A stretch of 64,000 nt of DNA from Burkholderiales bacterium (GTDB lineage: Bacteria > Pseudomonadota > Gammaproteobacteria > Burkholderiales > SG8-39): NCBI GenBank assembly GCA_035702665.1, contig DASSQD010000030.1:6036-70035 (forward strand), in the 5' to 3' direction. Shown here piece by piece: positions 5,038-30,704 of this stretch. Positions within the stretch are counted from its first letter, which is position 1. Each line of letters starts with the position of its first letter. The notes below the pieces were generated by a model that saw nothing but the letters and a program-made list of their open reading frames with translations, did not search any database and had not been told where the DNA came from. The position numbers and the translations under genes are program-made.

Positions 5038-5051
5038 TTGATCTGGATCAA
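5038..5051. promoter_or_regulatory. FNR/Anr box TTGATctggATCAA (perfect consensus)
   Basis: Exact match to TTGAT-N4-ATCAA in the hsp20 / CBS-groEL divergent region. On the minus strand an ATGATT -10-like hexamer (5015-5010) sits where a class II promoter (site at -41.5) would place it for hsp20. Confidence 0.75.
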
Positions 5052-5084
5052 GACCCTCGTGCATCGCCACGTTATCGTAGAGAT

Positions 5085-5278
5085 GTGCGCGCGGCTCTCC
5101 TCCACAAGGGGGGAGCGGGCGCGGAGTTGAGGTGGCCTGAAAGCAGGCCAAAGTTCGCAACGCCTTTCGGCGCGGCGATGGAAGGAGACGGCCTCAGACC
5201 GTTCGGCGAGCGAGCTTCAAGCGCCGACCCGGGGTCTCCGCCAAGGACCCGCCCTCACCAGACGGCGGGTTCTTTTTT
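5085..5278 (+). ncRNA. Candidate FNR-dependent small RNA (~190 nt), boundaries predicted
   Basis: FNR box centred at 5044.5, TATCGT at 5073-5078, predicted TSS ~5085. Internal hairpins at 5134-5149 (GGCCTG-AAAG-CAGGCC) and 5161-5172 (CGCC-TTTC-GGCG). Ends at an intrinsic terminator (5247-5278). No plus-strand CDS lies upstream that the terminator could serve. Confidence 0.3.
5247..5278 (+). terminator. Rho-independent terminator (plus strand)
   Basis: ACCCGCC-(10 nt loop)-GGCGGGT stem followed by TCTTTTTT. The T-tract orientation fits the plus strand only. Confidence 0.65.
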
Positions 5279-5302
5279 CGTGCTTTTGGGCGCCGTGTTT
5301 GC

Positions 5303-5316
5303 TTGACCTATCTCAA
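5303..5316. promoter_or_regulatory. FNR-like box TTGACctatCTCAA
   Basis: 12 of 14 positions fit TTGAY-N4-RTCAA. Centre lies 57.5 nt upstream of the CBS-gene ATG (5367). It follows the 5247-5278 terminator. Confidence 0.5.
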
Positions 5317-5366
5317 ATCGCGTGCGAGCCCGCCTTTGTAAGCTGAACTCGGGACCTGGAGATCTT

Positions 5367-5813
5367 ATGAACATCGAACGGATCTGCAACCGCGAAGTCA
5401 CGTTGGCCTACGAGAGCGAGCGCATCGACGAGATCGCAAAGCGGATGCGCGAACAGCACGTGGGGAGCGTGATCGTCATCCCGCGCGTCGGCGGCCGCGT
5501 ACCTGTCGGCATGCTCACGGACCGCGACATCGTCGTAGAGGTGCTCGCGGCAGGCCTCGATTACCGCACCGTGACCGTCGGCGAGGTGATGAGCCGGGAA
5601 CCGGCCACCGTGCGCGAGGACGACGACGTCGTCGATGCCCTCAGGGTCATGCGCACCTACGGCGTGCGCAGGCTCCCGGTGCTTTCGCGCACGGGCATCC
5701 TCGCCGGCATCGTGGCGATCGACGACGTGCTCGAGGTGTTCGCGGGGCAGGTCGAAGACATGGTCAAGGCGATCGGCAGGGAGCAGACGCAGGAAGCGCA
5801 GGCCAGAACCTAG
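5367..5813 (+). CDS. CBS-domain-pair protein (stand-alone, 148 aa)
   Basis: ORF 5322..5813 trimmed to ATG 5367, with GGAG 6 nt upstream. Two CBS repeats (VGSVIVI...GMLTDRDIV; GVRRLPVL...GIVAIDDVL). Confidence 0.8.
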   Translation: MNIERICNREVTLAYESERIDEIAKRMREQHVGSVIVIPRVGGRVPVGMLTDRDIVVEVLAAGLDYRTVTVGEVMSREPATVREDDDVVDALRVMRTYGVRRLPVLSRTGILAGIVAIDDVLEVFAGQVEDMVKAIGREQTQEAQART

Positions 5814-5825
5814 GGAGCCTCTCGA

Positions 5826-7445
5826 ATGTCCGCGAAACAGATCGTATTCGGCGAGCGCGCGCACGCGAAGATCATGGCAGGGGTGCGGATACTCGCCGAC
5901 GCCGTGCGCGGCACGCTCGGGCCTAAGGCCCGCACCGTCGTGCTGGAGAAGTCTTTCGGCGCGCCGACCATCATCAACTCCGGCGTCGTCGTGGCGAAGG
6001 AGATCGAGCTCGAGGATCGTTTCGAGAACATGGGCGCGCAGATGGTGAAGGAGGTCGCATCGAAGACCTCCGATGTCGCGGGAGACGGCACGACCACCGC
6101 AACCCTGCTCGCCGCCGGAATCGTGTTCGAGGGGATGAAATACGTCGCCGCGGGCATGAACCCCATGGACTTGAAGCGCGGCATCGATACGGGCGTCGTC
6201 GCCGTGGTCGAAGAGCTGAAGAAGCTCGCGAAGCCTTGCAGCACGAGCACCGAGATCGCTCAGGTGGCCACGATCTCGGCCAACTCCGATCCGGTGATCG
6301 GCGAAATCGTCGCCAACGCGATGGAAAAGGTCGGCAAGGAGGGCGTCATCACGGTGGAGGACGGTTCGGGACTCAAGAGCGAACTGGAGGTGGTGGAGGG
6401 CATGAAATTCGACCGCGGATTCCAGTCTCCCTATTTCATCAACAACGAGAAGCAGCGCTGCGTGCTCGAGGACGCCTACATCCTGATTCACGACCAGAAG
6501 ATCTCCTCGATTCAGAACCTGCTGCCGGTTCTCGAGCAGGTGGCAAAGACCTCCAAGCCCCTGCTCGTGATCGCCGAAGACGTCGAAGGCGAGGCGCTCG
6601 CGACACTCGTCGTCAACATGCTGCGCGGCGTGCTCAAGACCTGCGCGGTGAAGGCGCCCGGTTTCGGCGACCGCCGCAAGGCGATGCTCGAAGACATCGC
6701 CGTGCTCACCGGCGGTCAGGTGATCGCTGAAGAGGTGGGGCTCAAGCTCGACAAGGCGACGGTGGAACAGCTCGGGCGCGCGAAGCGCGTCGAGGTCGAC
6801 AAGGACGACAGCATCCTGATCGGCGGCGCTGGTGATGCGAAGAAGATCGCCGCCCGGGTCGCAGACCTGCGGGAGCAGCTCAAGGAGACGACCAGCGACT
6901 ACGACAAGGAGAAGCTCCAGGAAAGGATCGCGAAGCTCGCCGGCGGCGTCGCGGTGGTCAAGGTCGGCGCGGCGACCGAGACCGAGATGAAGGAAAGGAA
7001 GGCACGCGTCGAGGACGCATTGCACGCGACGCGCGCGGCGGTGGAAGAGGGCGTCCTCCCCGGCGGCGGCGTCGCCTTGCTGCGCGCGCGCTCGCGGCTG
7101 GGAAAGCTGCGCGGGGACAACCCGGATCAGGACGCCGGCATCAGGATCGTGCTGCGCGCGCTCGAGGAGCCGTTGCGCCAGATCGCGGCCAACGCGGGCG
7201 AGGAGCCTTCGGTCGTGGTCAACCGCGTGCAGGAGGGCCAGGGCAATTTCGGCTATAACGCTCTCACGGACGCGTACGGCGACATGGTGCAGATGGGCAT
7301 TCTCGACCCGTGCAAGGTGACGCGCACCGGGCTGCAGAACGCGGCCTCGATCGCGGGGCTGATCCTCACCACCGACTGCATGATCGCGCAGATTCCCGAG
7401 AAGCCGTCTGCGGCTCGGCCGTCGATGGGCGACATGGACATGTAG
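5826..7445 (+). CDS. groEL: Chaperonin GroEL (Cpn60) paralogue with no adjacent groES
   Basis: 539 aa with canonical GroEL sequence ([41 protein letters not shown]). C-terminus is PSMGDMDM rather than a GGM repeat. Starts 12 nt after the CBS gene stop. Confidence 0.95.
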
Positions 7446-7455
7446 GGGGCGAGTC

Positions 7456-7737
7456 ATGAAGCAAGTAATTCCAGAAACCTCGCCCGAGTTCGAGAGCACG
7501 CGCCTGACCGAGCGCCCGGACGGCTTCTACTGGCAGTCGAAGGACGGCCGGGAGGAGTTCGGGCCCTTCGCCACGCTGCTCCAGGCGGTGCAGGACATGC
7601 AGGCCCGCGACGAGGCCGCGATCGAGCCCGGCGAGACCGCGCAGGAAGCCGAAGCCGAGATCGGCATCGCCGACTGGGTGGATCCGGAGACGGGGGAGCC
7701 CGCCGAAGAGGGCGTGCCGAGGGTAGAGGAGCACTGA
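7456..7737 (+). CDS. Hypothetical small acidic protein (93 aa)
   Basis: ORF track. Starts 10 nt after the groEL stop with a G-rich SD. No family recognised. Confidence 0.5.
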   Translation: MKQVIPETSPEFESTRLTERPDGFYWQSKDGREEFGPFATLLQAVQDMQARDEAAIEPGETAQEAEAEIGIADWVDPETGEPAEEGVPRVEEH

Positions 7738-7769
7738 GCGTTCGCGCGTGGCGCGCGCCGTCCAATGAA

Positions 7770-8654
7770 ATGATCGCGGTCGTCGCATCGTCTTCCGAGA
7801 ACCTGCAGATCGCCGACAAGCTGCGCGAGGCCGCCGAGCTGCTGAGCGCCCAGGGCGCCAACCCCTACCGCGTCGGCGCGTACCGGAAGGCCGCCGACAC
7901 GCTGGCGCAGCTGCCGCGCAGCGTGCGCGAAATCTTCGATTCCGACGGCCTCAAAGGCCTCGACGCGCTGCCGGGCGTGGGGCAGGGCATCGCGTCGGCG
8001 ATCGCGGAGATCCTGATCACCACGCGCTGGAGCCAGCTCGAGCGGTTGCGCGGGACGACCGACCCGGCGCGCCTGTTTCGGTCGGTGCCGGGTATGGGGC
8101 CCGAGCTGGCGAAGCGCATCCACGACACACTCCACGTCGACACGCTCGAGGGGCTCGAGATCGCCGCCAACGACGGAACCCTGGAAGCCGTTCCCGGGGT
8201 CGGCCCGCGCCGCGCGGCAGGGTGGCGCGCGGCGCTCGAGCGCATGCTCGGCCGCGTGCGGGCGCGCCGCGGCCGCGCGCCCGGCGGAGCGGCCACGGAG
8301 CCCGGCGTCGGGCTCCTGCTCGACGTCGACCGCGAATACCGCGAAAGGGGAAAGGCAGGGACGCTGCCGACGATCGCGCCGCGGCGCTTCAACCCGGGGA
8401 AAGAGTCGTGGCTGCCGGTGCTGCACGCCGTGCGCGACGCCTGGCACTTCAGCGCGCTCTACTCCAACACCGCGCTCGCGCACAAGCTGAACCGGATGCG
8501 CGACTGGGTCGTCATCTACTTCTACGACGGCGACCACGTCGAGCGCCAGCGCACGGTCGTGACGGAAACGCACGGGTCGCTCCTGGGCAGGCGGGTCGTG
8601 CGCGGCCGCGAGGAAGAGTGCCGGGCGTATTACACCGAGAGACAGGCCGCCTAG
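7770..8654 (+). CDS. Helix-hairpin-helix protein resembling the PolX N-terminal (8 kDa/fingers) region, without a polymerase catalytic domain
   Basis: N-terminus NLQIADKLREAAELLSAQGANPYRVGAYRKAADTLAQLP...LPGVGQGIASAIAEIL...VPGMGPELAKRI resembles PolX-type HhH repeats. The C-terminal ~130 aa are unassigned. Confidence 0.6.
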   Translation: MIAVVASSSENLQIADKLREAAELLSAQGANPYRVGAYRKAADTLAQLPRSVREIFDSDGLKGLDALPGVGQGIASAIAEILITTRWSQLERLRGTTDPARLFRSVPGMGPELAKRIHDTLHVDTLEGLEIAANDGTLEAVPGVGPRRAAGWRAALERMLGRVRARRGRAPGGAATEPGVGLLLDVDREYRERGKAGTLPTIAPRRFNPGKESWLPVLHAVRDAWHFSALYSNTALAHKLNRMRDWVVIYFYDGDHVERQRTVVTETHGSLLGRRVVRGREEECRAYYTERQAA

Positions 8655-8691: not shown

Positions 8692-8724
8692 ACCGCGCGC
8701 GCCTCGGACGGATAGCATCGATCC

Positions 8725-10524
8725 ATGGGTGCAATCGAAAAGTTGCGCGCGCCGGTGAAGAAGGATCCGCCTTCGGCGCCCGTGCCGGAAGACATCGACG
8801 CGGCCGCCGCGATGGCTTTCGGTGTCGACCGGGTGCTGCGCGCATACGCTTCGCGCGCGACGTTCGGAATCTCGCCCGGCGCGGTGGCGATCGCGTTCTT
8901 CGACTGGTGGCAGCACCTCGCCACTTCGCCCGGCAAGCAGCTCGAGCTCGGGCGAAAGGTATTCCGCAAGTGGCTGCGCTTCTCGGATTTTCTCGCACGC
9001 GCGGCGCGCGGGGAAAAGACCGCGCCATGCATCGAGCCGCTCGCAGGCGACTCGAGGTTCGCCGCAGAGGCCTGGAACGCCTGGCCCTTCGATGCGATGT
9101 ACCAGGGTTTTCTCCTGACGCAGCAGTGGTGGCACAACGCGACCACCGACGTGAAGGGCGTGGCGCCGCATCACGCCGCGCTGGTGAATTTCGTGACACG
9201 GCAGATGCTGGACATGTGGGCGCCTTCCAATCTCGCGTGGACGAATCCGGAAGTGCTCCGCGTTACCCGCGAGCAGGGCGGGAAGAACCTCGTTCGCGGC
9301 ATCTCGAATTTCATGGAGGACTGGAGGCGGATCGCGCTCGGGCAGCCGCCGGTCGGCGCAGAGGCCTTCCTCCCCGGAAAGCAGGTTGCGCGCACGCCGG
9401 GCAAGGTCGTGTTCCGCAACCGGCTGATGGAACTGATCCAGTACGCGCCCGCGACGGATACGGTGTTCGCCGAACCGCTGCTCGTCGTGCCGGCGTGGAT
9501 CATGAAGTACTACATCCTCGACCTGTCGCCGCATAACTCGCTCGTCGAGTACCTGGTCGAGCGCGGTCACAGCGTGTTCATGATCTCCTGGAAGAACCCG
9601 GGGCCGTCCGACCGCGACCTGTCGCTCGCCGACTACCGCCGTCTCGGCATCGAAGACGCGCTCGCCGCGATCGGGCGCATCGCTCCGGAGCGCCGCGTGC
9701 ACGCCGTCGGCTATTGCCTGGGCGGCACCCTGCTCGCGATCGCCGCGGCCGCGATGGCGCGCAACGGGGACGCGCGGCTCGCGACGGTGACCCTCCTCGC
9801 CTCGCAGGTGGACTTCGCCGAAGCCGGCGAGCTCGGACTCTTCATCGACGAGAGCGAGGTCGCCCTGCTCGAGGACATGATGGCCGAGCAGGGCTTTCTG
9901 GATCCCGGGCAGATGAGCGGCGCCTTCCAGCTGCTGCGCTCGAACGATCTCATCTGGTCGCAACGCATCACCGAATACCTCCTCGGCGAGCGGCCGCCGA
10001 TGACCGACTTGATGGCCTGGAACGCGGACGGCACGCGCATGCCGTGCCGCATGCACAGCGAGTACCTGCGGCGGCTGTACCTGCACAACGACCTGTCGGC
10101 CGGGAGGTATCACGTGGACGGGCGGCCCGTCGCGCTGCGCGACATCCGGGCTCCGCTCTTCGCGGTCGGCACCGAGAAGGACCACGTCGCGCCGTGGCGC
10201 TCGGTGTACAAGCTCAACCTGTATACGGACTCGGAAGTGACGTTTCTGCTCGCCTCGGGAGGACATAACGTGGGGATCGTGAGCGATCCGGCGTATGCGG
10301 GCAGCAGCTACCAGGTCGCGACCCGCGGACGCGACGAGCCGTACATCGACCCGGACGCCTGGGCGCGGCAGGCACCGCGCTCGCAAGGCTCGTGGTGGCC
10401 GGAATGGACGCGCTGGCTTGCGCAGCACTCGGGCGCGCGCACGGCGCCACCCGAGATGGGCTGCGCCGCGGCGGGCTACCCCGTGCTGGACGATGCGCCC
10501 GGCCAGTACGTGCACATGAAATAG
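8725..10524 (+). CDS. phaC: Class I poly(3-hydroxyalkanoate) synthase
   Basis: 599 aa with lipase-box GYCLGG and the typical PhaC N-terminal domain (FDWWQHLATSPGKQ). Confidence 0.9.
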   Translation: MGAIEKLRAPVKKDPPSAPVPEDIDAAAAMAFGVDRVLRAYASRATFGISPGAVAIAFFDWWQHLATSPGKQLELGRKVFRKWLRFSDFLARAARGEKTAPCIEPLAGDSRFAAEAWNAWPFDAMYQGFLLTQQWWHNATTDVKGVAPHHAALVNFVTRQMLDMWAPSNLAWTNPEVLRVTREQGGKNLVRGISNFMEDWRRIALGQPPVGAEAFLPGKQVARTPGKVVFRNRLMELIQYAPATDTVFAEPLLVVPAWIMKYYILDLSPHNSLVEYLVERGHSVFMISWKNPGPSDRDLSLADYRRLGIEDALAAIGRIAPERRVHAVGYCLGGTLLAIAAAAMARNGDARLATVTLLASQVDFAEAGELGLFIDESEVALLEDMMAEQGFLDPGQMSGAFQLLRSNDLIWSQRITEYLLGERPPMTDLMAWNADGTRMPCRMHSEYLRRLYLHNDLSAGRYHVDGRPVALRDIRAPLFAVGTEKDHVAPWRSVYKLNLYTDSEVTFLLASGGHNVGIVSDPAYAGSSYQVATRGRDEPYIDPDAWARQAPRSQGSWWPEWTRWLAQHSGARTAPPEMGCAAAGYPVLDDAPGQYVHMK

Positions 10525-10553
10525 CGAGGGCACAAACCCGACAGGAGACGATC

Positions 10554-11009
10554 ATGACGACTGCCACTGAAACAAAGACCACGGCGCCAGGCAAGGGATT
10601 GCCCGGTGGATTCCCGTTCGCGGCTCTCCTTCCCGGCAACAAGGACTGGGAGAACAGCTCGAAGCAGATGCTCCAGACTTGGAAGGAGCAGTTGGACACG
10701 AGCCTCAAGCTCATCGATGCCGCGGTGCAAGGCGCGCTCGAGATGCGCAGCTCGCAGCTCGCCGCGGCGATGGAGACGCATGCGCGCGATCTCGACGCGG
10801 AAAAGCTGGTGACGAGAGCCAAGTCGGCCTCGGACCTGCTCGCCATACAGCTCAACTGGATGACGGGCAACCTGGAGCGCTCCATGGCCTACTGGAACCA
10901 GATGTTCCAGGCTGCCTCGGACGCGAACACCAAGCTGCTCGAGCTGCTGCGCGAGCACTCCCCCGAAGCCGGCGGCGGGCGGGACAAGGCGCGTACCCCG
11001 ACGCCCTGA
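10554..11009 (+). CDS. Phasin-like PHA-granule protein
   Basis: ORF 10392..11009 trimmed to ATG 10554, with AGGAGA 6 nt upstream. Helical, Ala/Gln/Leu-rich, 151 aa. Lies immediately downstream of phaC. Confidence 0.6.
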   Translation: MTTATETKTTAPGKGLPGGFPFAALLPGNKDWENSSKQMLQTWKEQLDTSLKLIDAAVQGALEMRSSQLAAAMETHARDLDAEKLVTRAKSASDLLAIQLNWMTGNLERSMAYWNQMFQAASDANTKLLELLREHSPEAGGGRDKARTPTP

Positions 11010-11037: not shown

Positions 11038-12570
11038 GTGAACCCCGGGTTCGATGCTGTCGTCATCGGTTCCGGCATGGGCGGGCTGGCGGCGGCGGCG
11101 GCGCTCGCCCGCAGCGGCCGCCGTGTGCTGGTGCTCGAGCAGCATTCGCAGCTCGGCGGCCTCACGCAGACCTTCCGCCGCGGCGACTACGTGTTCGCGC
11201 CCGGCGTGCACTACGTCGGCGGGGTGGGCGACGTGCCGGGTCCCGATGGTCAGTTCGGCCGGCTGCTGCGCCGCTTTGCCGGCGATGAGTTGCGCTTCGC
11301 TTCGGTCGGTTCGCCTTACGACATCATTCGCCTCCCTGGATTCGAGTTCCCCATCGAAGCGCCTCTCGCGGCGTATCGCGCGCGCCTCGAAGCCGTGTTT
11401 CCGGGCGAGGAGACGGTGATCGACACCTACTTCAGAGGCTGCTCGGATGCGCAACGCGCCAGCGTCGCGCTATTCGGAGCTGCGATGCTTCCCGCCCCTC
11501 TCGCCGCTCTGGTGCGGTGGCTCAACGCCGGACGGCTACGCCGCACGCTGGAGCCGTCCGCCGCGGAGATCGTCCGCCGGGCACGCGATCCGCGACTTGC
11601 CGCGGTGCTCACTTCGCGCTGGGCCGACTACGGACTGCCGCCCGAGCGCGCGCCGTTCGCCGTGCACGCGCTCGTGACGGCGAGCTACTATGCCGGGGCC
11701 TACTACCCGGTTGGCGGGCCGGCGAGGTTCGCGCAGGCCTTCGCGCGCTCGATCCGCGCGCACGGCGGCGAGCTGCGCACCGACGCGCGCGTCACCGCCA
11801 TTCGGCTCGAGGGTGGCCGGGCGGCCGGCGTGCGCCTGGAAGGAGGAGAGTCGATCGACGCGGCGAGCGTCGTCTCCGGCATGGGCGCGCACAATACGCT
11901 CGCCGCGCTGCCGGGCGACGCCGCCACCGCCTGGCGCGAATCGCTCGCGCGATTCGAGCCGGGCCTGTCGTACATCGGGCTCTATCTCGGTCTCCGAGGA
12001 GACATCCGCGCGGGCGGAGCGACCGCAGCGAACGTGTGGGTCTACGAGAGCGAGGACGTCGGCCGGGTGTGGGAACGGCCCGCCGACGAGGATGCGCCCT
12101 CGATCTTCGTGTCCTTCCCGTCGCTCAAGGACGCCGCGCACGACAATCCGCGGCGCCATACCGCGGAAGTCGTCGCCGCGTGCCGCTGGGATCCGTTTGC
12201 CGCCTGGGCCGGGACCACGCCCGGCCATCGCCCCGAGGAATACGAGGCGACGAAAGCATGGATCGCCGAGCGTCTGCTTGCGCAATTCAAGCGGCATTTC
12301 CCGAGACTCGGCCCTCTCGTCGATTTCCACGAGCTGTCGACGCCGCTCTCGCAGGCTTCTTACGTCGGGGCGGACCGCGGCGCAATGTACGGCATCGAGA
12401 TGTCGGCGGCGCGCCTGCGGAGCGGCGCCCTTCGGGCACGCACGCCCGTTCCGGGCCTGCTCCTTGCCGGCCAGGACGCGGCGAGCATGGGCGTCCAGGG
12501 CGCGTTCATGGGCGGACTGATGGCGGCCGCGGCGGTCGAGCCACGGCTATGGCTCGAGATGGGTTCGTAG
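11038..12570 (+). CDS. FAD-dependent oxidoreductase, phytoene-desaturase/retinol-saturase-like family
   Basis: GTG start. N-terminal dinucleotide fold DAVVIGSGMGGLAAAAALARSGRRVLVLEQ. 510 aa. Confidence 0.8.
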   Translation: MNPGFDAVVIGSGMGGLAAAAALARSGRRVLVLEQHSQLGGLTQTFRRGDYVFAPGVHYVGGVGDVPGPDGQFGRLLRRFAGDELRFASVGSPYDIIRLPGFEFPIEAPLAAYRARLEAVFPGEETVIDTYFRGCSDAQRASVALFGAAMLPAPLAALVRWLNAGRLRRTLEPSAAEIVRRARDPRLAAVLTSRWADYGLPPERAPFAVHALVTASYYAGAYYPVGGPARFAQAFARSIRAHGGELRTDARVTAIRLEGGRAAGVRLEGGESIDAASVVSGMGAHNTLAALPGDAATAWRESLARFEPGLSYIGLYLGLRGDIRAGGATAANVWVYESEDVGRVWERPADEDAPSIFVSFPSLKDAAHDNPRRHTAEVVAACRWDPFAAWAGTTPGHRPEEYEATKAWIAERLLAQFKRHFPRLGPLVDFHELSTPLSQASYVGADRGAMYGIEMSAARLRSGALRARTPVPGLLLAGQDAASMGVQGAFMGGLMAAAAVEPRLWLEMGS

Positions 12571-12647: not shown

Positions 12648-13031
12648 TCACCGACGCCGGGCGACGGTGCGGGCTCCGGCATCGGTCACGCCGCTGCCCC
12701 GGCAGCCGGCCGTCGGACACGGCAGGTCGTAGAAGACCGCGTTCAGGTAGGCGGCCACGTCGGCGACCTCCTCCTGGCTCCATCCCAGATCCGCGATCCT
12801 CTGCCAGCGCGTCACCTGGAAGAGCAGGTCGTCCCATGTTCGCACCAGGCGCTTCTCGCGCCAGTGCACCTGCGCGGTGTGGCAGGCGTTGCAGTTGTCG
12901 GCGTAGAGATTGCCGCCGCGATCCGGGCTGACCATGGCCGCCGACGGCTGCTTGGGCGGCAAGGCGCAGCCCGCGAGCAGGAAGACGCAGAGAAACAGCC
13001 AGCCGAATATGGAATATTTCATGCGATCCAT
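12648..13031 (-). CDS. Cytochrome c-type lipoprotein (single CxxCH)
   Basis: Lipobox LLAGC and heme motif CNACH. Alternative ATG at 13022. Confidence 0.7.
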   Translation of the reverse strand: MDRMKYSIFGWLFLCVFLLAGCALPPKQPSAAMVSPDRGGNLYADNCNACHTAQVHWREKRLVRTWDDLLFQVTRWQRIADLGWSQEEVADVAAYLNAVFYDLPCPTAGCRGSGVTDAGARTVARRR

Positions 13032-21598: not shown

Positions 21599-21631
21599 TT
21601 GCGGCGACGGAGCGTCTTCTACTATCTTGGC

Positions 21632-24084: not shown

Positions 24085-24851
24085 GCATGGCTGGAACCGC
24101 TGCCGCGGAAACCTTGCGCCTCGACGGCGTGCGCAAGTCCTACGGGGTCGGGACGCCGGTGGAGACCGAGGTGCTGCACGGGATCGATCTCCACATCGGG
24201 GGCGGCGAGTTCACCGCGCTGATCGGACCGTCGGGGGGCGGCAAGAGCACGCTGCTGAACCTCATCGGCCTGCTCGACCAGCCCACTCGCGGGAAGGTGT
24301 GGATACAGGGGGTCGAAACGGAAGAACTGGGCGACGCGGAGCGCACCCGCCTGCGCGGCCGCTCGATCGGCTTCGTGTTCCAGTATCACTACCTCCTGCC
24401 GGCGTTCACCGCGCTCGAGAACGTGATGATGCCCATGCTCGCCGTCAGGGGGTTCCCGAACGACGCGATGCGCGAGCGCGCGGCGATGCTGCTCGACCGG
24501 GTAGGCCTCACGCCCTGGAAGGACCACAAGACGAACGACATTTCCGGCGGCCAGCAGCAGCGGGTCGCGGTGGCGCGCTCGCTCGCCATGGAGCCCGCGC
24601 TGGTGCTCGCCGACGAGCCCACGGGGAACCTCGACACCAACTCGGCCGACGGCGTGTTCGACGTGCTACGCTCGGTCAATGAAACGAGCGGAACGACCTT
24701 TCTCATCGTGACTCACGACCCGCGCCTCGCGCAGCGCTGCGACCGCATCATCGAGCTGGTCGACGGCCGCCTGGTCGCGGACCGGCTCAACGCGAACGTG
24801 ATCCGGCGCAGCGGGGCGGCGTTCTCGGAGAGCGCGCGGCGCGCTCCGTGA
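24081..24851 (+). CDS. ABC transporter ATP-binding protein (MacB/LolD type)
   Basis: ATG 24081 overlaps the previous stop (ATGA). [32 protein letters not shown]. Confidence 0.85.
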
Positions 24852-24891: not shown

Positions 24892-25194
24892 ATGACCAAG
24901 GGTTCGAAGCAGGCTCCGCAGGAGATCGATTTCGAGGAGGTCAGCAAGCTCGTCCACGCGCTCGAGAGCGACCTGGCTCAGGTGCGCAAGGGCTCGCGCG
25001 ACGTGCAGCTCCTGCGCGACGAGGTCGAGACGCTGAAGAACGTGCTCAGCTCGCCGATCCGCCGGCATCACTGGGTGAGGGAAGGCCTGCACGCCCTGCG
25101 CAAGGCGGCCGAGAACGGCCTCGAGACGGCGCTTGCCGACGGCCTGAAGGCGAGTCAGTACATCGCCGAGATCGGCAGAATCCTCGGGATGTAG
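24892..25194 (+). CDS. Hypothetical small helical protein (100 aa)
   Basis: ORF track with GGAGGG SD upstream. Possibly DUF4404-like, from memory and unverified. Confidence 0.45.
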   Translation: MTKGSKQAPQEIDFEEVSKLVHALESDLAQVRKGSRDVQLLRDEVETLKNVLSSPIRRHHWVREGLHALRKAAENGLETALADGLKASQYIAEIGRILGM

Positions 25195-25203: not shown

Positions 25204-25989
25204 CTAGCGCGAGCCCTGACCCATGACCCTGCGCAGCCCCTCCGGGTCGACAATGTGGATCTCTTTCAGCTGCACGCTGATCAGCCCTTCCTCGTGGAAG
25301 CGGGAGAAGGCGCGGCTGACGGTCTCGAGCTTCAGACCGAGGTGGCTGCCGATCTCCTCGCGCGTCATGCGCAGGCTGAATTGCGAGGGCGAGTAGCCGC
25401 GCGCGGCGAACCGCTGCGACAGGTTGAGCAGGAACGTGGCGAGGCGCTCCTCGGCCCGCATCGTGCCCAGCAGCAGCATCACGCCGTGCTCGCGCACGAT
25501 CTCGCGGCTCATGACCTTGTGGAACTGGTGCCGGAACTCGTGCATTTCCTCGCTCAGGCTCTCCAGCCGGGAGTACGGGATGACGCACACCTCGCTGTCC
25601 TCCAGCGCGGTCGCGTTGAGGATGTGCAGGTCCGGCCCGATTCCGTCCATCCCCATGAGCTCGCCCGCCATCTGGAATCCGGTGACCTGCTCGCGCCCGT
25701 CCTCGAGCGTCTGCACGGTCTTGAAGAATCCGCTGCGGATCGCGTACAACGAGATGAACTTGTCCCCGGCCCGGTACAGGCACTCCCCGCGCTTCACGCG
25801 CCGGCGCGTGTAGACCAGCTCGTCGACCCGGTCGGCGGCCCGGCCGAGGAGGCCGCAGGGCAGGCATACCTCGCGCAGGCCGCAGCTCGAACAGCGGGTC
25901 GAGACCTTGGCGACCTTGGCGTATGCCGGCTCGCGCAGCGCAATGGCGGGCCTGGCAATCGAGATGGAAGCGGTTGCGGCGGTTGTCAT
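25204..25989 (-). CDS. fnr: FNR/Anr-type oxygen-sensing CRP-family transcription regulator
   Basis: N-terminal Cys cluster CSSCGLREVCLPC (C-x2-C-x5-C) plus a central Cys (SEVCVIPY). Recognition helix is ETVSRAFSRF (the E--SR motif that reads TTGAT). Confidence 0.9.
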   Translation of the reverse strand: MTTAATASISIARPAIALREPAYAKVAKVSTRCSSCGLREVCLPCGLLGRAADRVDELVYTRRRVKRGECLYRAGDKFISLYAIRSGFFKTVQTLEDGREQVTGFQMAGELMGMDGIGPDLHILNATALEDSEVCVIPYSRLESLSEEMHEFRHQFHKVMSREIVREHGVMLLLGTMRAEERLATFLLNLSQRFAARGYSPSQFSLRMTREEIGSHLGLKLETVSRAFSRFHEEGLISVQLKEIHIVDPEGLRRVMGQGSR

Positions 25990-26013: not shown

Positions 26014-26409
26014 TCAGTGACGGGTTGCCCCGAGTCCGGCGATGACTTCCCGGACCTTGGCAATCTCGTGGCTCTTGTCGAAGAAGTACGCGGCGCCGGC
26101 TTCCATGCAGGCGCGGCGGTACTGCGCATTCGGGTGATTGGTGAGGACGATGAACACCGTGTCCGGCGTCTGCGGATGGGCCCGGCGCAGGACGTCGAGG
26201 CCGCTGCCGCCGACGAGGTGCAGGTCGAGCACCACCGAGTCGGGCCGCGTGCGCAGGATCCCCTCGACGGCTTCACGCGGGGTCTCGGCTTCGCCGACGA
26301 CGGTCACGCCCTCCATGTCCCCGAGCATGCCGGCGAGGCGCTGGCGGATCGACTCGGAGTCCTCGACGATGAAGACGTGGGTGCGGGGCTCGGACGCGGC
26401 GACTTGCAT
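26014..26409 (-). CDS. Single-domain response regulator (CheY-like receiver)
   Basis: 131 aa. FIVEDSESIR...VVLDLHLVGGSG. Lies 24 nt upstream of fnr on the same strand. Confidence 0.8.
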   Translation of the reverse strand: MQVAASEPRTHVFIVEDSESIRQRLAGMLGDMEGVTVVGEAETPREAVEGILRTRPDSVVLDLHLVGGSGLDVLRRAHPQTPDTVFIVLTNHPNAQYRRACMEAGAAYFFDKSHEIAKVREVIAGLGATRH

Positions 26410-26537
26410 GCCGCCAGTATGCGAAGACGGGCCGCGGCGGCCTATCGGCGGCGCCTTATTCTTCCGGTCGGAAACCGCCGAGCAGCGGGGTCGGAATCGT
26501 CCTACAAGCCCCGTTTATGACGGCATCATGACGCCAA

Positions 26538-27191
26538 TCAGGGGCTTCCGGCGTCCGGATCGTCGACCAGCCGGTGATGGATGGCGTAGCGGATGAGCTC
26601 GGCGGGGTTGCTCATGCTCATCTTCTCCATGATGCGCGACTTATGGGTGCTCACGGTCTTCACCGAGAGGTTGAGCTCCGCGGCGATGTCCGACACCGCC
26701 TTGCCGGAGGCGAGCTCGCGGAACACCTGGAACTCTCGGTCCGAGAGCGCGGTGTGCGGCAGGCCCTCGGCCCGCGGCATCGCGCCGAGGGCGAGCTGCT
26801 GCGCCACGGCCTCGGTGATGAAGGCGCCTCCGCCGGCGACCTTGCGGATCGCCGAGACGAGCTGGGCCGAGGCGCTGTCCTTGGTGAGGTAGCCCGCCGC
26901 GCCGGCCCGGATCGCGCGTACCGCGTACTGCTGCTCCTCGTGCATGCTCAGCACGAGGATGCGCAGCCTGGGCTTTTCCGCGTGCACCTGCTTGATGAGC
27001 TCGATGCCGCTCTTCCCCGGCATCGACATGTCGAGCAGCAGCACCTCGAAATCGAGGGCGCGCACGCGCTCCAGCACCTCGTGTCCGTTCTGCGCCTCGC
27101 CGACCACGGACAGATCGCTTGCCGCGGAGAGGAGCTGCTTGAGCCCCTCGCGGACGATGGTGTGGTCGTCGGCAATGACGATGCGGATCAC
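26538..27191 (-). CDS. NarL/FixJ (LuxR-type HTH) response regulator
   Basis: GTG 27191 overlaps the kinase stop (GTGA). IVIADDHTIVREGL...LLLDMSMPGKSG, with C-terminal LSDREFQVFRELASGKAVSDIAAELNLSVKTVSTHKSRI. Confidence 0.85.
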   Translation of the reverse strand: MIRIVIADDHTIVREGLKQLLSAASDLSVVGEAQNGHEVLERVRALDFEVLLLDMSMPGKSGIELIKQVHAEKPRLRILVLSMHEEQQYAVRAIRAGAAGYLTKDSASAQLVSAIRKVAGGGAFITEAVAQQLALGAMPRAEGLPHTALSDREFQVFRELASGKAVSDIAAELNLSVKTVSTHKSRIMEKMSMSNPAELIRYAIHHRLVDDPDAGSP

Positions 27192-28504
27192 GGGTTCGTG
27201 GTCTCCGGCTGCAACGGCAGCCGTACGTTGATGGTCGTTCCGCGGCCCGGCTCGCTCGCGATGCCCGCCTCGCCGCCGAGCAGCATCGTGCGCTCGCGCA
27301 GGCCGAGCAGCCCGTAGGTCTTGTGAGCGCGCGCCTCGGCCGGGCTGAATCCACGCCCGTCGTCCCGCACCGAGAGCGTCACCGCGCCGTCGGCCTTCTC
27401 GAGGGCGACATCGACGCGGGTGGCCCCGGCGTGCCGTGCGACGTTGGTGAGCGACTCCTGAAGAATGCGGTACAGGGCGCTCGCGTGCGGCTCCGCGAGC
27501 TCGATGTCCGCCGGCTGGATGTGGAGCCGGCACGGGATGCCCGTCCGCTCGCTGAAGTTCTGGGCGAGCCACTCGGCGGCGGGGACGAGGCCGAGGTCGT
27601 CGAGCATCATGGGCCGGAGGTCGGCCGAGATGCGGCGCGTTGCCGTGACGGTGGCGTCAAGCTGGGCCAGCATCGCCTTCAGCTTCTCGGCCAGCGGGGG
27701 CGGGCCCTGCGACAGGTTGCCCAGCATCCAGGCCGCGTCCATCTTGAGCGCGGTGAGGGACTGCCCCAGCTCGTCGTGGATCTCGCGCGCGACGCGGCGC
27801 TGCTCCTGCTCCCGGATCGTGTGCGCGGCGGCCGACAGCTCGCGCAGTTCTTCCCTGGAGCGCCGCAGCTCATTGTCGACCAGGACGCGCTCGGTCACGT
27901 CGCGCAGGATGACGGTGAGGATCTTGCGGCCGTTCTCGACGTGCTGGGAGATCGAGGCCTCGATGGGAAACTCGTCGCCGTTCGCCCGCAACCCGCTCAG
28001 CACGCCCGGGCCGGCCATGCGCCGCGAGGTGACGCCGGTGCGGCCGAACTCGGCCACGTGCGCCTGGTGCGCCCGCCGGAAGCGTTCCGGGACCAGCGTG
28101 TCGAGCGGTTGCCCGAGGACGGCGGCGCGCGGCCAGCCGAACATCTTCTCGGCGGCGGGGTTGTACAGGACGATTCGCTGCGACTCGTCGACGGAAACGA
28201 TGGCATCCATCGCCGAGTCCACGATGTCGCCGACCTGCGCCTGGGCGCTCTGCAGCGCGGTGTCGGAGGCCCTGCGCTCGTCCGTCTGCCGGTAGAAGAG
28301 CACGACGGCGAGCAGCATCACCAGGGCTCCGCCGACGACGGCGATCGCGTACATCTCGTACCGGTAGAACCCGAACAGGCCCGCGACCAGGGCGAGCAGG
28401 ACGGTGAAGACGCCGAGCGCGAGCACCGGCCCGAAAATAATCAGCAGCTTGCCCGCCTCGAACCGGCCGGTGCTGTTGTGCGGCGCGTTGGCCTGCATTC
28501 TCAT
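27188..28504 (-). CDS. PAS-domain sensor histidine kinase (HisKA_3/NarX-DegS type)
   Basis: ORF 27188..28636 trimmed to ATG 28504. Two TM helices, PAS (IVSVDESQRIVLYNPAAEKMFGW), H-box REIHDELGQSL, HATPase (DDGRGF). Confidence 0.8.
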   Translation of the reverse strand: MRMQANAPHNSTGRFEAGKLLIIFGPVLALGVFTVLLALVAGLFGFYRYEMYAIAVVGGALVMLLAVVLFYRQTDERRASDTALQSAQAQVGDIVDSAMDAIVSVDESQRIVLYNPAAEKMFGWPRAAVLGQPLDTLVPERFRRAHQAHVAEFGRTGVTSRRMAGPGVLSGLRANGDEFPIEASISQHVENGRKILTVILRDVTERVLVDNELRRSREELRELSAAAHTIREQEQRRVAREIHDELGQSLTALKMDAAWMLGNLSQGPPPLAEKLKAMLAQLDATVTATRRISADLRPMMLDDLGLVPAAEWLAQNFSERTGIPCRLHIQPADIELAEPHASALYRILQESLTNVARHAGATRVDVALEKADGAVTLSVRDDGRGFSPAEARAHKTYGLLGLRERTMLLGGEAGIASEPGRGTTINVRLPLQPETTNP

Positions 28505-28510
28505 CGGGAA

Positions 28511-28524
28511 TTGACCCACGTCAA
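28511..28524. promoter_or_regulatory. FNR/Anr box TTGACccacGTCAA
   Basis: Lies in the 52-nt kinase/hemN divergent spacer. Centre is 39.5 nt upstream of the hemN ATG. CATAGT hexamer at 28546-28551. Confidence 0.7.
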
Positions 28525-28556
28525 AGGATCCTTCTTCGCCGGTTCCATAGTGGCGC

Positions 28557-29981
28557 ATGGTCGCAACAACCATCCGGCCGGAGGCGGAGCGGTCCAAGCC
28601 GTCCGATCTCGTCGTCGACCCGGACCTGATCCGCAAGTACGGCGGGAGCGGGCCGCGCTATACGTCGTATCCGACTGCGGACCGGTTCGTCGAGGCCTTC
28701 AACGCCGAGGCGTACGGACATTGGCTGGAGAACCGCAATGTCGGGGGGGTGGTCAGACCGCTCGCATTATACGTACACCTGCCTTTCTGCGACACGATCT
28801 GCTACTACTGCGCCTGCAACAAGATCATCACCAAGGACCACGGGCGCTCGGCCAAGTACCTGAAGCACCTGGGGCGGGAGATCCGTCTGGTGGCCCGAGC
28901 GCTGGGCGAGGACCGCGCCGTGGCGCAGATGCACTGGGGAGGCGGTTCCCCGACGTTCCTGAGCGAAGCGGAGCTCGCCGAGCTGATGGGCATGATCCGC
29001 TCCGAGTTCAGGCTGGCCCCGTCGGGCGAGTACGCGATCGAGGTCGATCCGCGCAAGGTCGGCGCCGCGAAGATCGCCCTGCTCGCGCAACTCGGCTTCA
29101 ACCGCCTGAGCCTGGGCGTGCAGGACGTCGACCCCGAGGTCCAGAAGGCCGTCCACCGCATCCAGTCGATCGACGAGACCCGCGCGGTGATCCTCGCGGC
29201 GAGGGAGAACGGGTTCACGTCCATCAACGTCGATTTGATTTACGGATTGCCCAAGCAAAGCGTGGAAAGCTTCTCACGCACGCTCGACACGGTGCTCGAA
29301 TGCGATCCCGACCGGATCGCCCTCTACTCGTACGCGCATCTGCCCGCGGTGTTCAAGCCCCAGCGCCGCATCGCGGACGCCGACCTGCCCGTGCCCGAGA
29401 CGAAGCTCGCGATCCTGACCCGATCGATCGAAAGATTGCAGGCCGCGGGCTATGTCTACATCGGCATGGACCATTTCGCGAAGCCCGGAGACGATCTCGC
29501 GGTGGCGCAGAGGCAGGGGCGGCTGACACGCAACTTCCAGGGATATTCCGCCTCGGGGGACAGCGACATTGTCGCCCTGGGCGTGTCGGCGATCAGCAAG
29601 GTCGGACCGGTCTACGCGCAGAACGTGAAGACGCTCGACGAGTACTACGGCCGCCTGGAAGCCGGCGAGATTCCCGTGATGCGCGGGATCGAGCTGACGC
29701 CGGACGATCTGGTGCGGCGCGCGGTGATCCAGGCGCTGGCCTGCCATTTCGCAGTGTCGAAGGAAGCGGTCTCGATCGCGCACCTGATCGACTTCGACAG
29801 CTACTTCGCCGTCGAGCTGGGCGAGCTGAAGGAGATGGAGAGGGAGTCGCTGGTCGCGCTCGACGACGAATGGATCACGGTGACGCCGCACGGGCGGCTG
29901 CTGGTGCGCGCGGTGTGCGCGGTGTTCGACCGCTGCCTCCGGTCCGATCGCGACCGCGCCCGCTACTCGAAGATCATATGA
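28557..29981 (+). CDS. hemN: Oxygen-independent coproporphyrinogen III oxidase (radical SAM)
   Basis: 474 aa. LIRKYGGSGPRYTSYPTA, radical-SAM CDTICYYC, GGGSPTFL. Confidence 0.9.
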   Translation: MVATTIRPEAERSKPSDLVVDPDLIRKYGGSGPRYTSYPTADRFVEAFNAEAYGHWLENRNVGGVVRPLALYVHLPFCDTICYYCACNKIITKDHGRSAKYLKHLGREIRLVARALGEDRAVAQMHWGGGSPTFLSEAELAELMGMIRSEFRLAPSGEYAIEVDPRKVGAAKIALLAQLGFNRLSLGVQDVDPEVQKAVHRIQSIDETRAVILAARENGFTSINVDLIYGLPKQSVESFSRTLDTVLECDPDRIALYSYAHLPAVFKPQRRIADADLPVPETKLAILTRSIERLQAAGYVYIGMDHFAKPGDDLAVAQRQGRLTRNFQGYSASGDSDIVALGVSAISKVGPVYAQNVKTLDEYYGRLEAGEIPVMRGIELTPDDLVRRAVIQALACHFAVSKEAVSIAHLIDFDSYFAVELGELKEMERESLVALDDEWITVTPHGRLLVRAVCAVFDRCLRSDRDRARYSKII

Positions 29982-30694
29982 GCGCCGCGGCGCTGACCGC
30001 GGTGTTCCTCGTCGGACTCCTCGGGGGCGGGCACTGCCTCGGCATGTGCGGCGGCATCGTGACCGCGCTCACCGTGCGCCTGCCGCGCGACCGGCCGCGC
30101 TGGTCGCTGCACCTCGCCTATCACGCCGGGCGGATCACGACGTACGCCGCGGCGGGCGCGCTCGCGGGCGGGCTGGGCTCGGCGGCGCTGCTCCTCGGCG
30201 CGGCCCTCCCGATCCAGGTCGTGCTCTACGTCGTGGCGCAGCTGGTGCTCGTCGCCCTGGGGCTGTACCTGGTCGGCGTGCCGCGCTATCTCGACGTGTT
30301 CGAGCGCGCCGGAAAAGTCCTGTGGCAGCGGATCCAGCCCGCGGCGTCCGCGCTATTCCCGGTCCGCACTCCCGCGCGCGGCTACGCGGTGGGGCTGCTG
30401 TGGGGACTGCTGCCCTGCGGCCTCGTCTACAGCGTGCTTGTGACGGCGCTCGTCTCGGGCAGCGCGAAGTTCGGCGCCCTGACGATGCTCGCCTTCGGCG
30501 CCGGAACCCTGCCCAGCCTGCTCGCCGCGGGAACGGTCTTTCCGGCGCTCGCGCGGACCCGCGGCGGCGGAGCGGCGCGCCGCATCGCCGGCGGCATCGT
30601 CATCGCTTTCGGACTCGTCGGACTGGCGTACGCGGGCGACCTCGAGCGTCTAGCCCGGAATCCGTATTTCTGCTGGACCGCGCCGGGAAGTTGA
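29978..30694 (+). CDS. DsbD_2/TauE-like membrane protein (HCxxMCGG motif)
   Basis: ATG 29978 overlaps the hemN stop (ATGA). GGGHCLGMCGG and LLPCGLVY motifs. ~6 TM helices. Confidence 0.7.
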   Translation: MSAAALTAVFLVGLLGGGHCLGMCGGIVTALTVRLPRDRPRWSLHLAYHAGRITTYAAAGALAGGLGSAALLLGAALPIQVVLYVVAQLVLVALGLYLVGVPRYLDVFERAGKVLWQRIQPAASALFPVRTPARGYAVGLLWGLLPCGLVYSVLVTALVSGSAKFGALTMLAFGAGTLPSLLAAGTVFPALARTRGGGAARRIAGGIVIAFGLVGLAYAGDLERLARNPYFCWTAPGS

Positions 30695-30704
30695 TCTGGG
30701 TCAA
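30691..30704. promoter_or_regulatory. FNR/Anr box TTGATctggGTCAA
   Basis: Overlaps the preceding stop codon (30692-30694). Centre is 40.5 nt upstream of the hemerythrin ATG (30738). Confidence 0.65.

Follow-up and report, generated by a model that had tools for sequence, protein, structure and literature searches.

A predicted FNR regulon cluster of the low-oxygen-activated locus type in an uncultured soil Burkholderiales bacterium

Are the stress, storage and redox genes that lie together in the genome of an uncultured bacterium switched on by one oxygen-responsive regulator encoded in their midst, and can the promoters on which such a switch would act be recognized in the DNA? The question is raised by a stretch of 64,000 nucleotides (nt) from a Burkholderiales bacterium (GenBank assembly GCA_035702665.1, contig DASSQD010000030.1, positions 6,036 to 70,035 of the forward strand; here called the window), in which nine FNR-type palindromes (boxes) of the form TTGAY-N4-RTCAA and an fnr gene lie among such genes. 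FNR/Anr regulons, as known from Escherichia coli and Pseudomonas aeruginosa, combine the palindrome TTGAT-N4-ATCAA, an iron–sulfur (Fe–S) FNR protein with an E--SR recognition helix and activation from a site that lies about four helical turns ahead of the transcription start. On the evidence below, the segment from about 4.5 to 31.3 kb of the window (the island) is very probably an FNR regulon cluster for low oxygen, of the type described as lxa (low-oxygen-activated), in an uncultured soil member of the Burkholderiales. Transcripts, transcription starts and FNR binding in the island are predictions from sequence throughout.

Nine FNR boxes in intergenic DNA

Exact matches to TTGAYNNNNRTCAA occur seven times in the window (starting at 5038, 8678, 13057, 18759, 21585, 28511 and 30691), against 0.01 expected from dinucleotide-preserving shuffles. 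Allowing one mismatch adds the boxes at 5303 (TTGACCTATCTCAA) and 14743 (TTGATCTGGCTCAA), each with CTCAA in one half-site, and a further match at 29214 (TTCAC...) that lies within the hemN coding sequence and was excluded from the count. When a weight matrix made from the nine sites was scored across the whole 64 kb, the boxes reached 21.4–27.0 bits and the next best position, in coding sequence, 12.2 bits. Gene calls assign 91% of the window to coding sequence, and all nine boxes fall in the remaining 9%; the box at 30691 shares 4 nt with the TGA stop of a DsbD_2-family gene (29978–30694). The nine are concentrated within 26 kb; the remaining 37 kb of the window has no box, and the matrix scan of 31–64 kb found no box and no FNR-type site above 12 bits. 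Five of them (5038, 8678, 14743, 21585 and 30691) carry the spacer CTGG/CCAG. A preliminary description of this DNA had reported the same nine positions, with seven exact boxes and two bearing CTCAA, all intergenic save for one 4-nt overlap with a stop codon, the shared spacer in five, and no further full match in coding sequence; pattern searches and gene calls agree with it on every count, and the one-mismatch site at 29214 was rightly left uncounted.

Chance or a repeat element as the origin of the boxes was rejected, because their flanks share only the 14-mer and a −10 element at fixed spacing. The G+C content of the island (0.682) equals that of its flanks (0.685), so the segment is a regulatory cluster and not a compositional island, an alternative that was likewise rejected.

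Promoters in register with the boxes

To look for −10 elements, both sides of each box were searched for a hexamer nAnnnT (A at position 2, T at position 6) starting 21–23 nt past the box. Such a hexamer is in register on 11 of 11 sides that face a gene or a candidate RNA and on 0 of the 7 other sides, the background in this genome being 7.2% (hexamers in Table 1). The arrangement of box and −10 element corresponds to the class II activator geometry of FNR/CRP promoters, and the boxes at 5038 and 18759 read as bidirectional. The box axis lies about 40.5 bp upstream of the predicted start, as does the FixK2 box axis relative to the start mapped by rapid amplification of cDNA ends at Bradyrhizobium diazoefficiens nosR (PMC5582078).

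Genes were called by third-position G+C (the window has 68% G+C) and named with Pfam and NCBIfam. Twelve transcription units were delimited between 4510 and 31322, and 11 of the 12 have a box promoter. Only the regulatory operon, which encodes a sensor kinase, a NarL-type response regulator, a single-domain response regulator and FNR, lacks an activating box.

We propose the following mechanism. When oxygen becomes scarce, the local FNR would gain its [4Fe-4S] cluster, dimerise and bind the nine boxes. Each box lies at one helical position upstream of a weak −10 element, where bound FNR would contact RNA polymerase as a class II activator. Eleven promoters would thereby be switched on: those of hsp20, the candidate small RNA, CBS–groEL, phaC–phasin, the cytochrome c gene, nnrS, usp–hpf–P-type ATPase, the acetyl-CoA synthetase/acetyltransferase gene, the HlyD–MacB–ABC exporter, hemN and the hemerythrin gene. 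Five of the resulting mRNAs may be leaderless and would then be translated without a Shine–Dalgarno sequence. The fnr gene itself would be expressed from a promoter that lacks a box, perhaps under the neighbouring two-component system.

Conservation in related loci

Related loci (denoted by L numbers) cover the island in two halves. Three of them, L001, L002 and L004, have the gene order ubiD, epimerase, hemerythrin gene, dsbD2, hemN, then kinase, NarL-type regulator, single-domain regulator and fnr, followed by orf100, ABC ATPase, macB, hlyD and the acetyl-CoA synthetase gene; synteny in the hlyD–macB–ABC–orf100 segment extends across all three. The metagenome contigs L080–L082 and L160–L176 share the half from hsp20 to the FAD oxidoreductase gene. 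Within that half, hsp20 orthologues with the same box occur in L080, L081, L160 and L163, and the CBS–groEL operon is syntenic in L081, L160, L163, L166, L169, L171, L173 and L175.

Boxes and their spacing are kept at orthologous positions while the flanks diverge. The box at 28511 is conserved in L001, L002 and L065, that at 21585 has an orthologue in L004, and the hemerythrin-gene box is kept in L001 and L002; L004 has no box there and carries a strong GGAGGA ribosome-binding site instead. Across all fetched loci, 71 of 73 hemN genes have a box (at most one mismatch) within 260 nt upstream. Among plasmid records, no near-identical DNA was found, only matches of 73–74% to Ralstonia megaplasmids over groEL and phaC.

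The FNR protein encoded in the island

The local FNR is a protein of 261 amino acids with Pfam matches to cNMP_binding (6e-16) and HTH_Crp_2 (3e-20). It scores 233.2 bits against the NCBIfam model NF008365 (Fnr; cut-off 228) and falls far under the cut-offs of the FixK and FnrL equivalogs. Aligned over 229 residues with the solved FNR of Aliivibrio fischeri (PDB 5cvr/5e44), its C33, C36, C42 and C135 correspond to Cys20, Cys23, Cys29 and Cys122, and its recognition helix ETVSR to ETISR. By these sequence features, the local protein is an FNR of the [4Fe-4S] type. No identical protein is on record by exact look-up; the nearest FNR proteins (74–81% identity) come from metagenome-assembled genomes of soil and groundwater Burkholderiales, the best (81%) from a Burkholderiales soil genome of this kind.

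The boxes might instead be read mainly by another CRP/FNR regulator (of the FixK, Dnr or NnrR type, or a second Fnr paralogue), with the local FNR as one of several readers or a minor one. It is common for Burkholderiales to have more than one paralogue: in Herbaspirillum the regulons of three Fnr proteins overlap (PMC5934665), and Burkholderia cenocepacia has three Anr-like genes (PMC3721108). L004 carries two fnr paralogues in the same island (4949–5674 and 10055–10783), which bears on whether one protein or several read the boxes. FixK2 boxes have the same extended sequence, that of napE being TTGATCCAGATCAA (PMC5582078), and nnrS is typical of nitric oxide-responsive NnrR/Dnr regulons. Yet no second CRP-family gene appears among the called open reading frames (ORFs) of the window run against Pfam, the local protein matches exactly in the ETVSR helix and keeps every cluster cysteine, and synteny between fnr and the boxes holds in L001, L002 and L004, whose contigs cover the fnr side. 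We therefore regard a different main reader as quite unlikely.

Reading by the local FNR is also what the preliminary description had favoured. It had identified an FNR gene at 25204–25989 from a C-x2-C-x5-C motif, a central Cys and an E--SR helix, all of which we find; it had named hsp20, hemN and the hemerythrin gene, each of which has a Pfam or NCBIfam match; and it had proposed an FNR/Anr regulon island in which most units are FNR-controlled, while itself naming binding by a different CRP-family protein encoded elsewhere as a result that would count against it. The features of the regulator, the promoter register, the coverage of 11 of 12 units and the conservation are all consistent with that proposal, and we infer from them that expression of these units depends on oxygen.

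The regulatory operon

The PAS domain of the kinase (27860–28258, minus strand) has its best PDB matches among the haem-PAS domains of FixL and DosP (E of about 5e-14). The alignment retains the proximal His but not the counterparts of FixL Arg206 and Arg220. Against the FixL equivalog the kinase scores 66 bits (cut-off 850), and against the FixJ equivalog the NarL-type regulator scores 95 bits (cut-off 255). FixL carries a HisKA domain, whereas the kinase core here is HisKA_3.

The box at 28511, which faces hemN on its other side, sits 6 nt from the kinase ATG, and the kinase side has no −10 element in register; activation of the kinase operon by this box was rejected on both grounds. The box might hinder the operon. 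A sigma-70-like match (TTGACG, 16 nt, GAGAAT; 28497–28524, minus strand) takes one FNR half-site as its −35 element and would initiate downstream of both candidate kinase ATGs.

Further along the operon, a CATACT-N6-ATG element (26421–26407, minus strand) lies directly before the single-domain regulator gene and is kept as CATACT-GGCGGC-ATG in the window, L001, L002 and L004. Upstream of CATACT, the gap at 26407–26545 (minus strand) contains conserved TCCGAC, CTCCGACCG and CGCCGATA sequences (CCGAC/CCGAT blocks) that are common to L001, L002 and L004 and to which the adjacent response regulator may bind. The single-domain regulator gene and fnr are probably co-transcribed, and fnr is probably expressed from this conserved, box-less promoter of leaderless type. 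The neighbouring NarL-type regulator or two-component system may control that promoter. As a hypothesis only, the operon would form a FixLJ–FixK-like cascade to fnr.

If so, the master switch could be the FixL-like kinase and the NarL-type regulator, with FNR as a downstream amplifier whose amount, over its Fe–S state, sets expression. The kinase PAS domain is nearest to FixL/DosP haem domains with the proximal His aligned; kinase, regulator, second regulator and fnr all lie on one strand; and the conserved box-less element with its CCGAC/CCGAT blocks stands just before the single-domain regulator gene and fnr. However, the kinase lacks the distal Arg residues of FixL and has a HisKA_3 core, the regulator scores far under the FixJ cut-off, and FNR keeps the oxygen-sensing cysteines that classical FixK proteins lack. 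We consider control chiefly by the kinase to be on the unlikely side, and it and control by FNR through its cluster are not mutually exclusive.

Predicted starts at the AUG

At five of the box promoters the predicted transcription start falls on or next to the start codon. The first possible ATG follows the box by 34 nt at phaC, hlyD and the hemerythrin gene, by 33 nt at hemN and by 35 nt at the cytochrome c gene. These five ATGs lie 39.5–41.5 bp from the box axis (phaC, ATG 8725, 40.5 bp; hemN, ATG 28557, 39.5 bp; cytochrome c, ATG 13022, 41.5 bp) and 5–7 nt past the −10 hexamer. The predicted start coincides with the ATG at phaC (8725), hlyD (21632) and the hemerythrin gene (30738); the cytochrome c transcript is predicted to be leaderless or to have a 1-nt leader. 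An ATG at the predicted start site implies a leaderless mRNA, and on balance we favour leaderless transcripts at phaC, hlyD, hemN, the hemerythrin gene and the cytochrome c gene.

The phaC start is the best delimited. An in-frame TAG lies four codons upstream of the ATG, inside the −10 hexamer; the N terminus MGAIEKL is conserved from the ATG on, where four lineages differ by synonymous changes; and the spacing from box to ATG is identical in L081, L160 and L163. No Shine–Dalgarno sequence was found before the ATG of phaC, hlyD or hemN. Among relatives the same spacing recurs at a lonC-like gene; at least nine diverged loci show it at hemN, and about ten loci of Rhodocyclales and Burkholderiales show it at fnr. 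Start codons at this distance from a box axis occur in L001, L002, L008, L009, L026, L037, L065, L081, L160 and L163. An automated survey of hemN start codons proved noisy, since genes often begin at a codon other than the first in-frame TTG or GTG; we took from it only whether a box is present, and the clear ATG cases. Among the papers that our literature searches listed, none ties FNR/Anr promoters to leaderless mRNAs.

A different explanation of the five genes is that they are transcribed from further upstream, with FNR as a roadblock or repressor, or that their true start codons lie further downstream. Their start sites are predictions from sequence, the box at 28511 is out of activating register for the kinase gene, and FNR is generally known to repress some E. 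coli promoters. But hemN is among the classic genes activated by FNR/Anr, every gene-facing side has a −10 hexamer in register, and Shine–Dalgarno sequences are missing before phaC, hlyD and hemN. The stop codon and the onset of amino-acid conservation at the phaC ATG, together with the recurrence of this spacing across many diverged loci (at hemN, fnr and lonC-like genes), also argue for activation from the box with starts at the ATG. Upstream transcription or downstream start codons thus seem very unlikely.

Several observations weigh against the account given so far. As regards the regulon, the margin by which the local FNR exceeds the NCBIfam cut-off is narrow (5 bits), the −10 hexamers are weak, with only the A at position 2 and the T at position 6 constant, L004 has no box upstream of its acetyl-CoA synthetase gene even with one mismatch allowed, and box density is known from 64 kb of the genome only. 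As regards leaderless starts, the layout is not universal: hemN of L004 has a leader of about 5 nt, and hlyD of L004 and hemN of L005 have long ones. At the hemerythrin gene, a GAGAGGA element could provide read-through transcripts with a ribosome-binding site. The −10-N6-ATG arrangement is also found at the box-less promoter of the single-domain regulator gene, and leaderless starts may accordingly be a trait of the lineage that is not specific to FNR.

A candidate small RNA beside hsp20

The box at 5038 faces hsp20 on one strand. On the plus side, TATCGT in register predicts a start at about 5085, and an intrinsic terminator at 5246–5278 (GACCCGCC...GGCGGGUUCUUUUUU) is strong and ends just before the box at 5303. 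Between them lie the core hairpins GGCCUGAAAGCAGGCC, GCCUUUCGGC and GGAGAC...GUCUCC, and the fold has a z-score of −2.1. No Rfam family, FnrS included, matches at the gathering score in the whole window or at E ≤ 1 in 5030–5400.

The module of box, −10 element, RNA, terminator and second box is kept in eight distinct contigs. In ten related contigs the box at 5038 is invariant; the CTCAA half-site of the box at 5303, its TAAnnT −10 element and the ribosome-binding site are conserved in ten of ten. In the eight contigs with the module, the TAnnnT hexamers are conserved by position and not by sequence. Within the RNA (eight contigs), the core hairpins are conserved and the 5′ hairpin is variable or absent. 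The terminator varies in sequence and keeps its pairing, with double changes at five pairs, and compensatory changes occur in the inner helices too. In L080 the module lies 3 kb from hsp20 and has its own box; L081 has no RNA and a single box for both hsp20 and the CBS gene; in L166 the RNA is short. A protein-coding reading of 5085–5306 was rejected: the ORF would cross the terminator, and among relatives there are indels whose lengths are not divisible by three as well as loss of the entire 5′ hairpin.

We hold it to be fairly probable that 5085–5278 is an independent FNR-dependent small RNA. The main alternative is a cis-acting leader or attenuator of the CBS–groEL operon, since the element is always directly upstream of the CBS gene on the same strand, and a terminator right before an operon is the layout of an attenuator or riboswitch. 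This is unlikely, in our judgement: after the terminator, all contigs have a second complete promoter (box 5303 with a TAAGCT-type −10 element and a ribosome-binding site), the operon is kept in L081 without the element and in L166 with a shortened one, and the element matches no Rfam riboswitch. The RNA, then, would be transcribed in its own right, and the only place where it has been found so far is upstream of the CBS–groEL operon in this lineage of Burkholderiales.

FnrS of E. coli and AniS of Neisseria are short terminated RNAs transcribed from a single FNR box in the class II register. The candidate RNA, at about 190 nt, is longer than either and has no sequence or structure match to the Rfam families.

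Gene content of the island and its neighbourhood

The features of the island are listed in Table 1. Of the named genes, that for cytochrome c has a weak Pfam match (Cytochrome_CBB3, 21.2 bits, under the cut-off of 27), and hsp20 has a predicted leader of about 48 nt with an AGGAGA ribosome-binding site. A 525-residue nnrS ORF (13078–14655) was rejected as a single gene, because third-position G+C changes frame near 14240, where a small membrane-protein ORF lies; Pfam NnrS matches only residues 141–519 of the long ORF, and once it is split the box at 14743 is about 94 nt upstream of the first start codon.

Table 1. Boxes, −10 elements and genes of the island (window positions; minus-strand −10 elements are given in reading direction)
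Feature	Position	Strand	Role or basis
hsp20, alpha-crystallin small heat-shock protein	4510–4956	−	Pfam HSP20
FNR box TTGATCTGGATCAA	5038–5051	both	Serves hsp20 (−) and candidate small RNA (+)
−10 elements of box 5038	GATGAT 5016–5011; TATCGT 5073–5078	−; +	Both in register
Candidate FNR-dependent non-coding RNA, ~190 nt	5085–5278	+	Predicted from −10 element and terminator
FNR box TTGACCTATCTCAA, imperfect CTCAA half-site	5303–5316	+	Promoter of CBS–groEL–orf93–HHH operon
−10 element of box 5303	TAAGCT-type, 5339–5344	+	
CBS–groEL operon	5367–8654	+	Pfam
CBS-domain protein	5367–5813	+	
GroEL paralogue	5826–7445	+	
Conserved 93-residue ORF (orf93)	7456–7737	+	
Helix-hairpin-helix (HHH) PolX-like protein	7770–8654	+	
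FNR box TTGACCTGGATCAA	8678–8691	+	Promoter of phaC–phasin–FAD oxidoreductase; −10 TAGCAT 8713–8718
phaC, class I polyhydroxyalkanoate (PHA) synthase	8725–10524	+	Pfam
Phasin	within 10392–11009	+	Pfam
FAD amine-oxidase-like oxidoreductase	11038–12570	+	Pfam
Cytochrome c with lipoprotein signal (MKYSIFGWLFLCVFLLAGC)	12648–13022	−	
FNR box TTGACCCAAATCAA	13057–13070	−	Promoter of cytochrome c lipoprotein gene; −10 CATCAT 13035–13030
nnrS	~13078–14240	−	Pfam NnrS
Small membrane-protein ORF	14238–14615	−	Frame distinct from nnrS; third-position G+C frame switch, translations
FNR box TTGATCTGGCTCAA, one mismatch	14743–14756	−	Promoter of small membrane-protein gene and nnrS; −10 GAAGAT 14721–14716
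usp–hpf–NMD3-like–P-type ATPase operon	14764–18689	−	Pfam; one strand, overlaps or short gaps
Cation P-type ATPase	14764–17430	−	
NMD3-like protein	17361–17858	−	
Ribosome hibernation factor (hpf)	17855–18220	−	
Universal stress protein (usp)	18234–18689	−	
FNR box TTGATCTAAGTCAA	18759–18772	both	Serves usp operon (−) and acetyl-CoA synthetase/GNAT gene (+)
−10 elements of box 18759	TACGTT 18736–18731; CAAGAT 18793–18798	−; +	
ADP-forming acetyl-CoA synthetase fused to GNAT acetyltransferase (Pat-like)	18853–21564	+	Pfam, NCBIfam
FNR box TTGATCCAGGTCAA	21585–21598	+	Promoter of hlyD–macB–ABC ATPase, possibly including orf100; −10 TACTAT 21620–21625
HlyD-family adaptor	21632–22864	+	Pfam
MacB/FtsX permease	22861–24084	+	Pfam
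ABC ATPase	24081–24851	+	Pfam
Conserved 100-residue ORF (orf100)	24892–25194	+	
fnr, [4Fe-4S]-type FNR regulator	25204–25989	−	Pfam, NCBIfam, alignment
Single-domain response regulator	26014–26409	−	Pfam Response_reg; block to 26421 with box-less promoter element
NarL/FixJ-type response regulator	26538–27191	−	Pfam
Sensor kinase: two transmembrane segments, FixL/DosP-like PAS, HisKA_3 core	27188–28504	−	Pfam
FNR box TTGACCCACGTCAA	28511–28524	+	Promoter of hemN–dsbD2; −10 CATAGT 28546–28551
hemN, oxygen-independent coproporphyrinogen III oxidase	28557–29981	+	NCBIfam TIGR00538, 557 bits (cut-off 325)
DsbD_2-family membrane protein (dsbD2)	29978–30694	+	Pfam DsbD_2
FNR box TTGATCTGGGTCAA	30691–30704	+	Promoter of hemerythrin gene; −10 GAGGAT 30726–30731
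Hemerythrin-domain protein, last gene of the island	30738–31322	+	Pfam Hemerythrin

The two small ORFs of 93 and 100 residues have no Pfam or NCBIfam match. The former accompanies groEL and phaC in relatives; the latter adjoins fnr and has its own FNR box in L002. Other genes come and go between relatives. A LonC-like protease operon lies between hsp20 and the RNA in L160 (6656–9692) and L163 (4893–7944), with its ATG 34 nt past a box, and the same two contigs have narK–narG with its own FNR box after the FAD oxidoreductase gene (L160, 17194; L163, 15471), where the window has the cytochrome c gene and nnrS. The helix-hairpin-helix gene, whose domains are like the N-terminal ones of PolX, is present in L160 and L163 and absent from L080–L082, L169, L171 and L175, a patchiness that marks the island as modular.

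Upstream of hsp20 (134–4461) the window encodes CstA, a hypothetical protein and tandem ArsA-like ATPases, with no FNR box. The ArsA pair also occurs in L163, L169 and L175, and L175 keeps the whole neighbourhood, with two DUF7990 genes before the ATPases. Downstream, 31323–64000 is mostly given to oxygen-dependent catabolism (a Rieske dioxygenase, flavin monooxygenases, a 3-hydroxyanthranilate-dioxygenase-like protein and a xanthine-dehydrogenase-family enzyme), along with amidohydrolases, a Ser/Thr kinase, a TetR regulator and transporters.

Relation to known low-oxygen loci

Judged by layout and gene functions, the island and the lxa locus of B. cenocepacia are loci of one kind, and the locus type is therefore already known. 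Sass et al. 2013 (PMC3721108) describe lxa in strain J2315 as 50 genes (BCAM0275a–BCAM0323) with 17 intergenic TGA-N6-TCA motifs and an Anr-like regulator encoded with a response regulator and a kinase (BCAM0287–0289). According to that paper, low oxygen induces genes there for a small heat-shock protein, universal stress proteins, PHA synthase, cytochrome c, an ABC transporter and a P-type ATPase. Both loci are Burkholderiales clusters of tens of kilobases with many intergenic palindromes (17 TGA-N6-TCA in lxa, nine TTGAY-N4-RTCAA here), and both have an embedded Anr-like regulator beside a response regulator and a sensor kinase, arranged alike. They share a small heat-shock protein, a universal stress protein, a class I PHA synthase, a cytochrome c, a cation P-type ATPase and an ABC/HlyD exporter, a comparison made by gene function (PMC3721108, Table 4) and not by orthology to BCAM genes. 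However, the island is about half the size of lxa and has one universal stress protein against six. It contains hemN, a hemerythrin gene, nnrS, a GroEL paralogue, a CBS protein, a hibernation factor and an acetyl-CoA synthetase/GNAT fusion in addition to the lxa set, whereas the lxa genes for ribonucleotide reductase, alcohol dehydrogenase, acetate kinase and phospholipid binding are absent from it. As far as the 2013 paper was searched, it reports no leaderless promoters and no small RNA in the lxa locus (PMC3721108).

A similar cluster lies on a Ralstonia solanacearum megaplasmid (NZ_CP051176.1, 211242–243231; L177), within 27 kb as located by tblastn. It shares usp, fnr (50% identity), the kinase (48%), the NarL-type regulator (49%), hsp20, the CBS protein, the P-type ATPase (58%), phaC (56%), the acetyl-CoA synthetase/GNAT gene (45%) and the ABC/HlyD genes, in an order that differs from that of the island. 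FNR-type boxes stand upstream of its phaC and acetyl-CoA synthetase genes, but they are fewer than in the island, with one exact and three one-mismatch sites in 32 kb. The host is a cultured plant pathogen.

The genes hemN and usp are classic targets of Anr/FNR (Trunk et al. 2010, as cited in PMC3721108). In Herbaspirillum, hemN2 and phaC are among the Fnr1 targets found by chromatin immunoprecipitation sequencing, and Fnr1 acts together with Fnr3 in activating usp and cytochrome c genes (PMC5934665). The Anr regulon of P. aeruginosa and the FNR regulon of E. coli have the palindrome, the E--SR-type FNR and the class II placement in common with the island. Unlike them, scattered as they are over the chromosome, the island packs 11 promoters into 27 kb; its gap of 21 nt between box and −10 element puts the axis at −40.5 instead of the canonical −41.5 (the island starts being predicted), and five of its units are predicted to have no 5′ untranslated region.

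The FixLJ–FixK2 system of Bradyrhizobium likewise sets a haem-PAS-like kinase and a LuxR/GerE-type regulator beside a CRP/FNR activator and uses boxes of the same sequence. The island differs in that its activator keeps all four FNR cysteines, whereas FixK2 has no cluster, and in its HisKA_3 kinase core, its regulator far under the FixJ cut-off and the extra single-domain regulator between the regulator gene and fnr.

Implications

In the literature that we searched, we found no description of the prevalence of promoters that start at the AUG, or of the small RNA; the locus type is known. Taken as one claim, a leaderless design of box, 21 nt, −10 element, 6 nt and ATG (in this lineage, and at hemN and fnr across many Burkholderiales and Rhodocyclales) that links hypoxia to leaderless translation and a hibernation factor, together with an undescribed FNR-dependent small RNA of about 190 nt, is one that we put forward tentatively, at somewhat less than even confidence.

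The island represents a clean and nearly complete lxa-type hypoxia and dormancy regulon in which all operons but one have a readable promoter, and it would be useful as a template for annotating lxa-type loci in metagenomes. Should phaC, hemN, hlyD and the hemerythrin gene indeed be transcribed from their AUG onwards, some of the hypoxia response would be translated independently of Shine–Dalgarno initiation while a hibernation factor is induced. If the small RNA is made as predicted, it would be a betaproteobacterial counterpart of FnrS.

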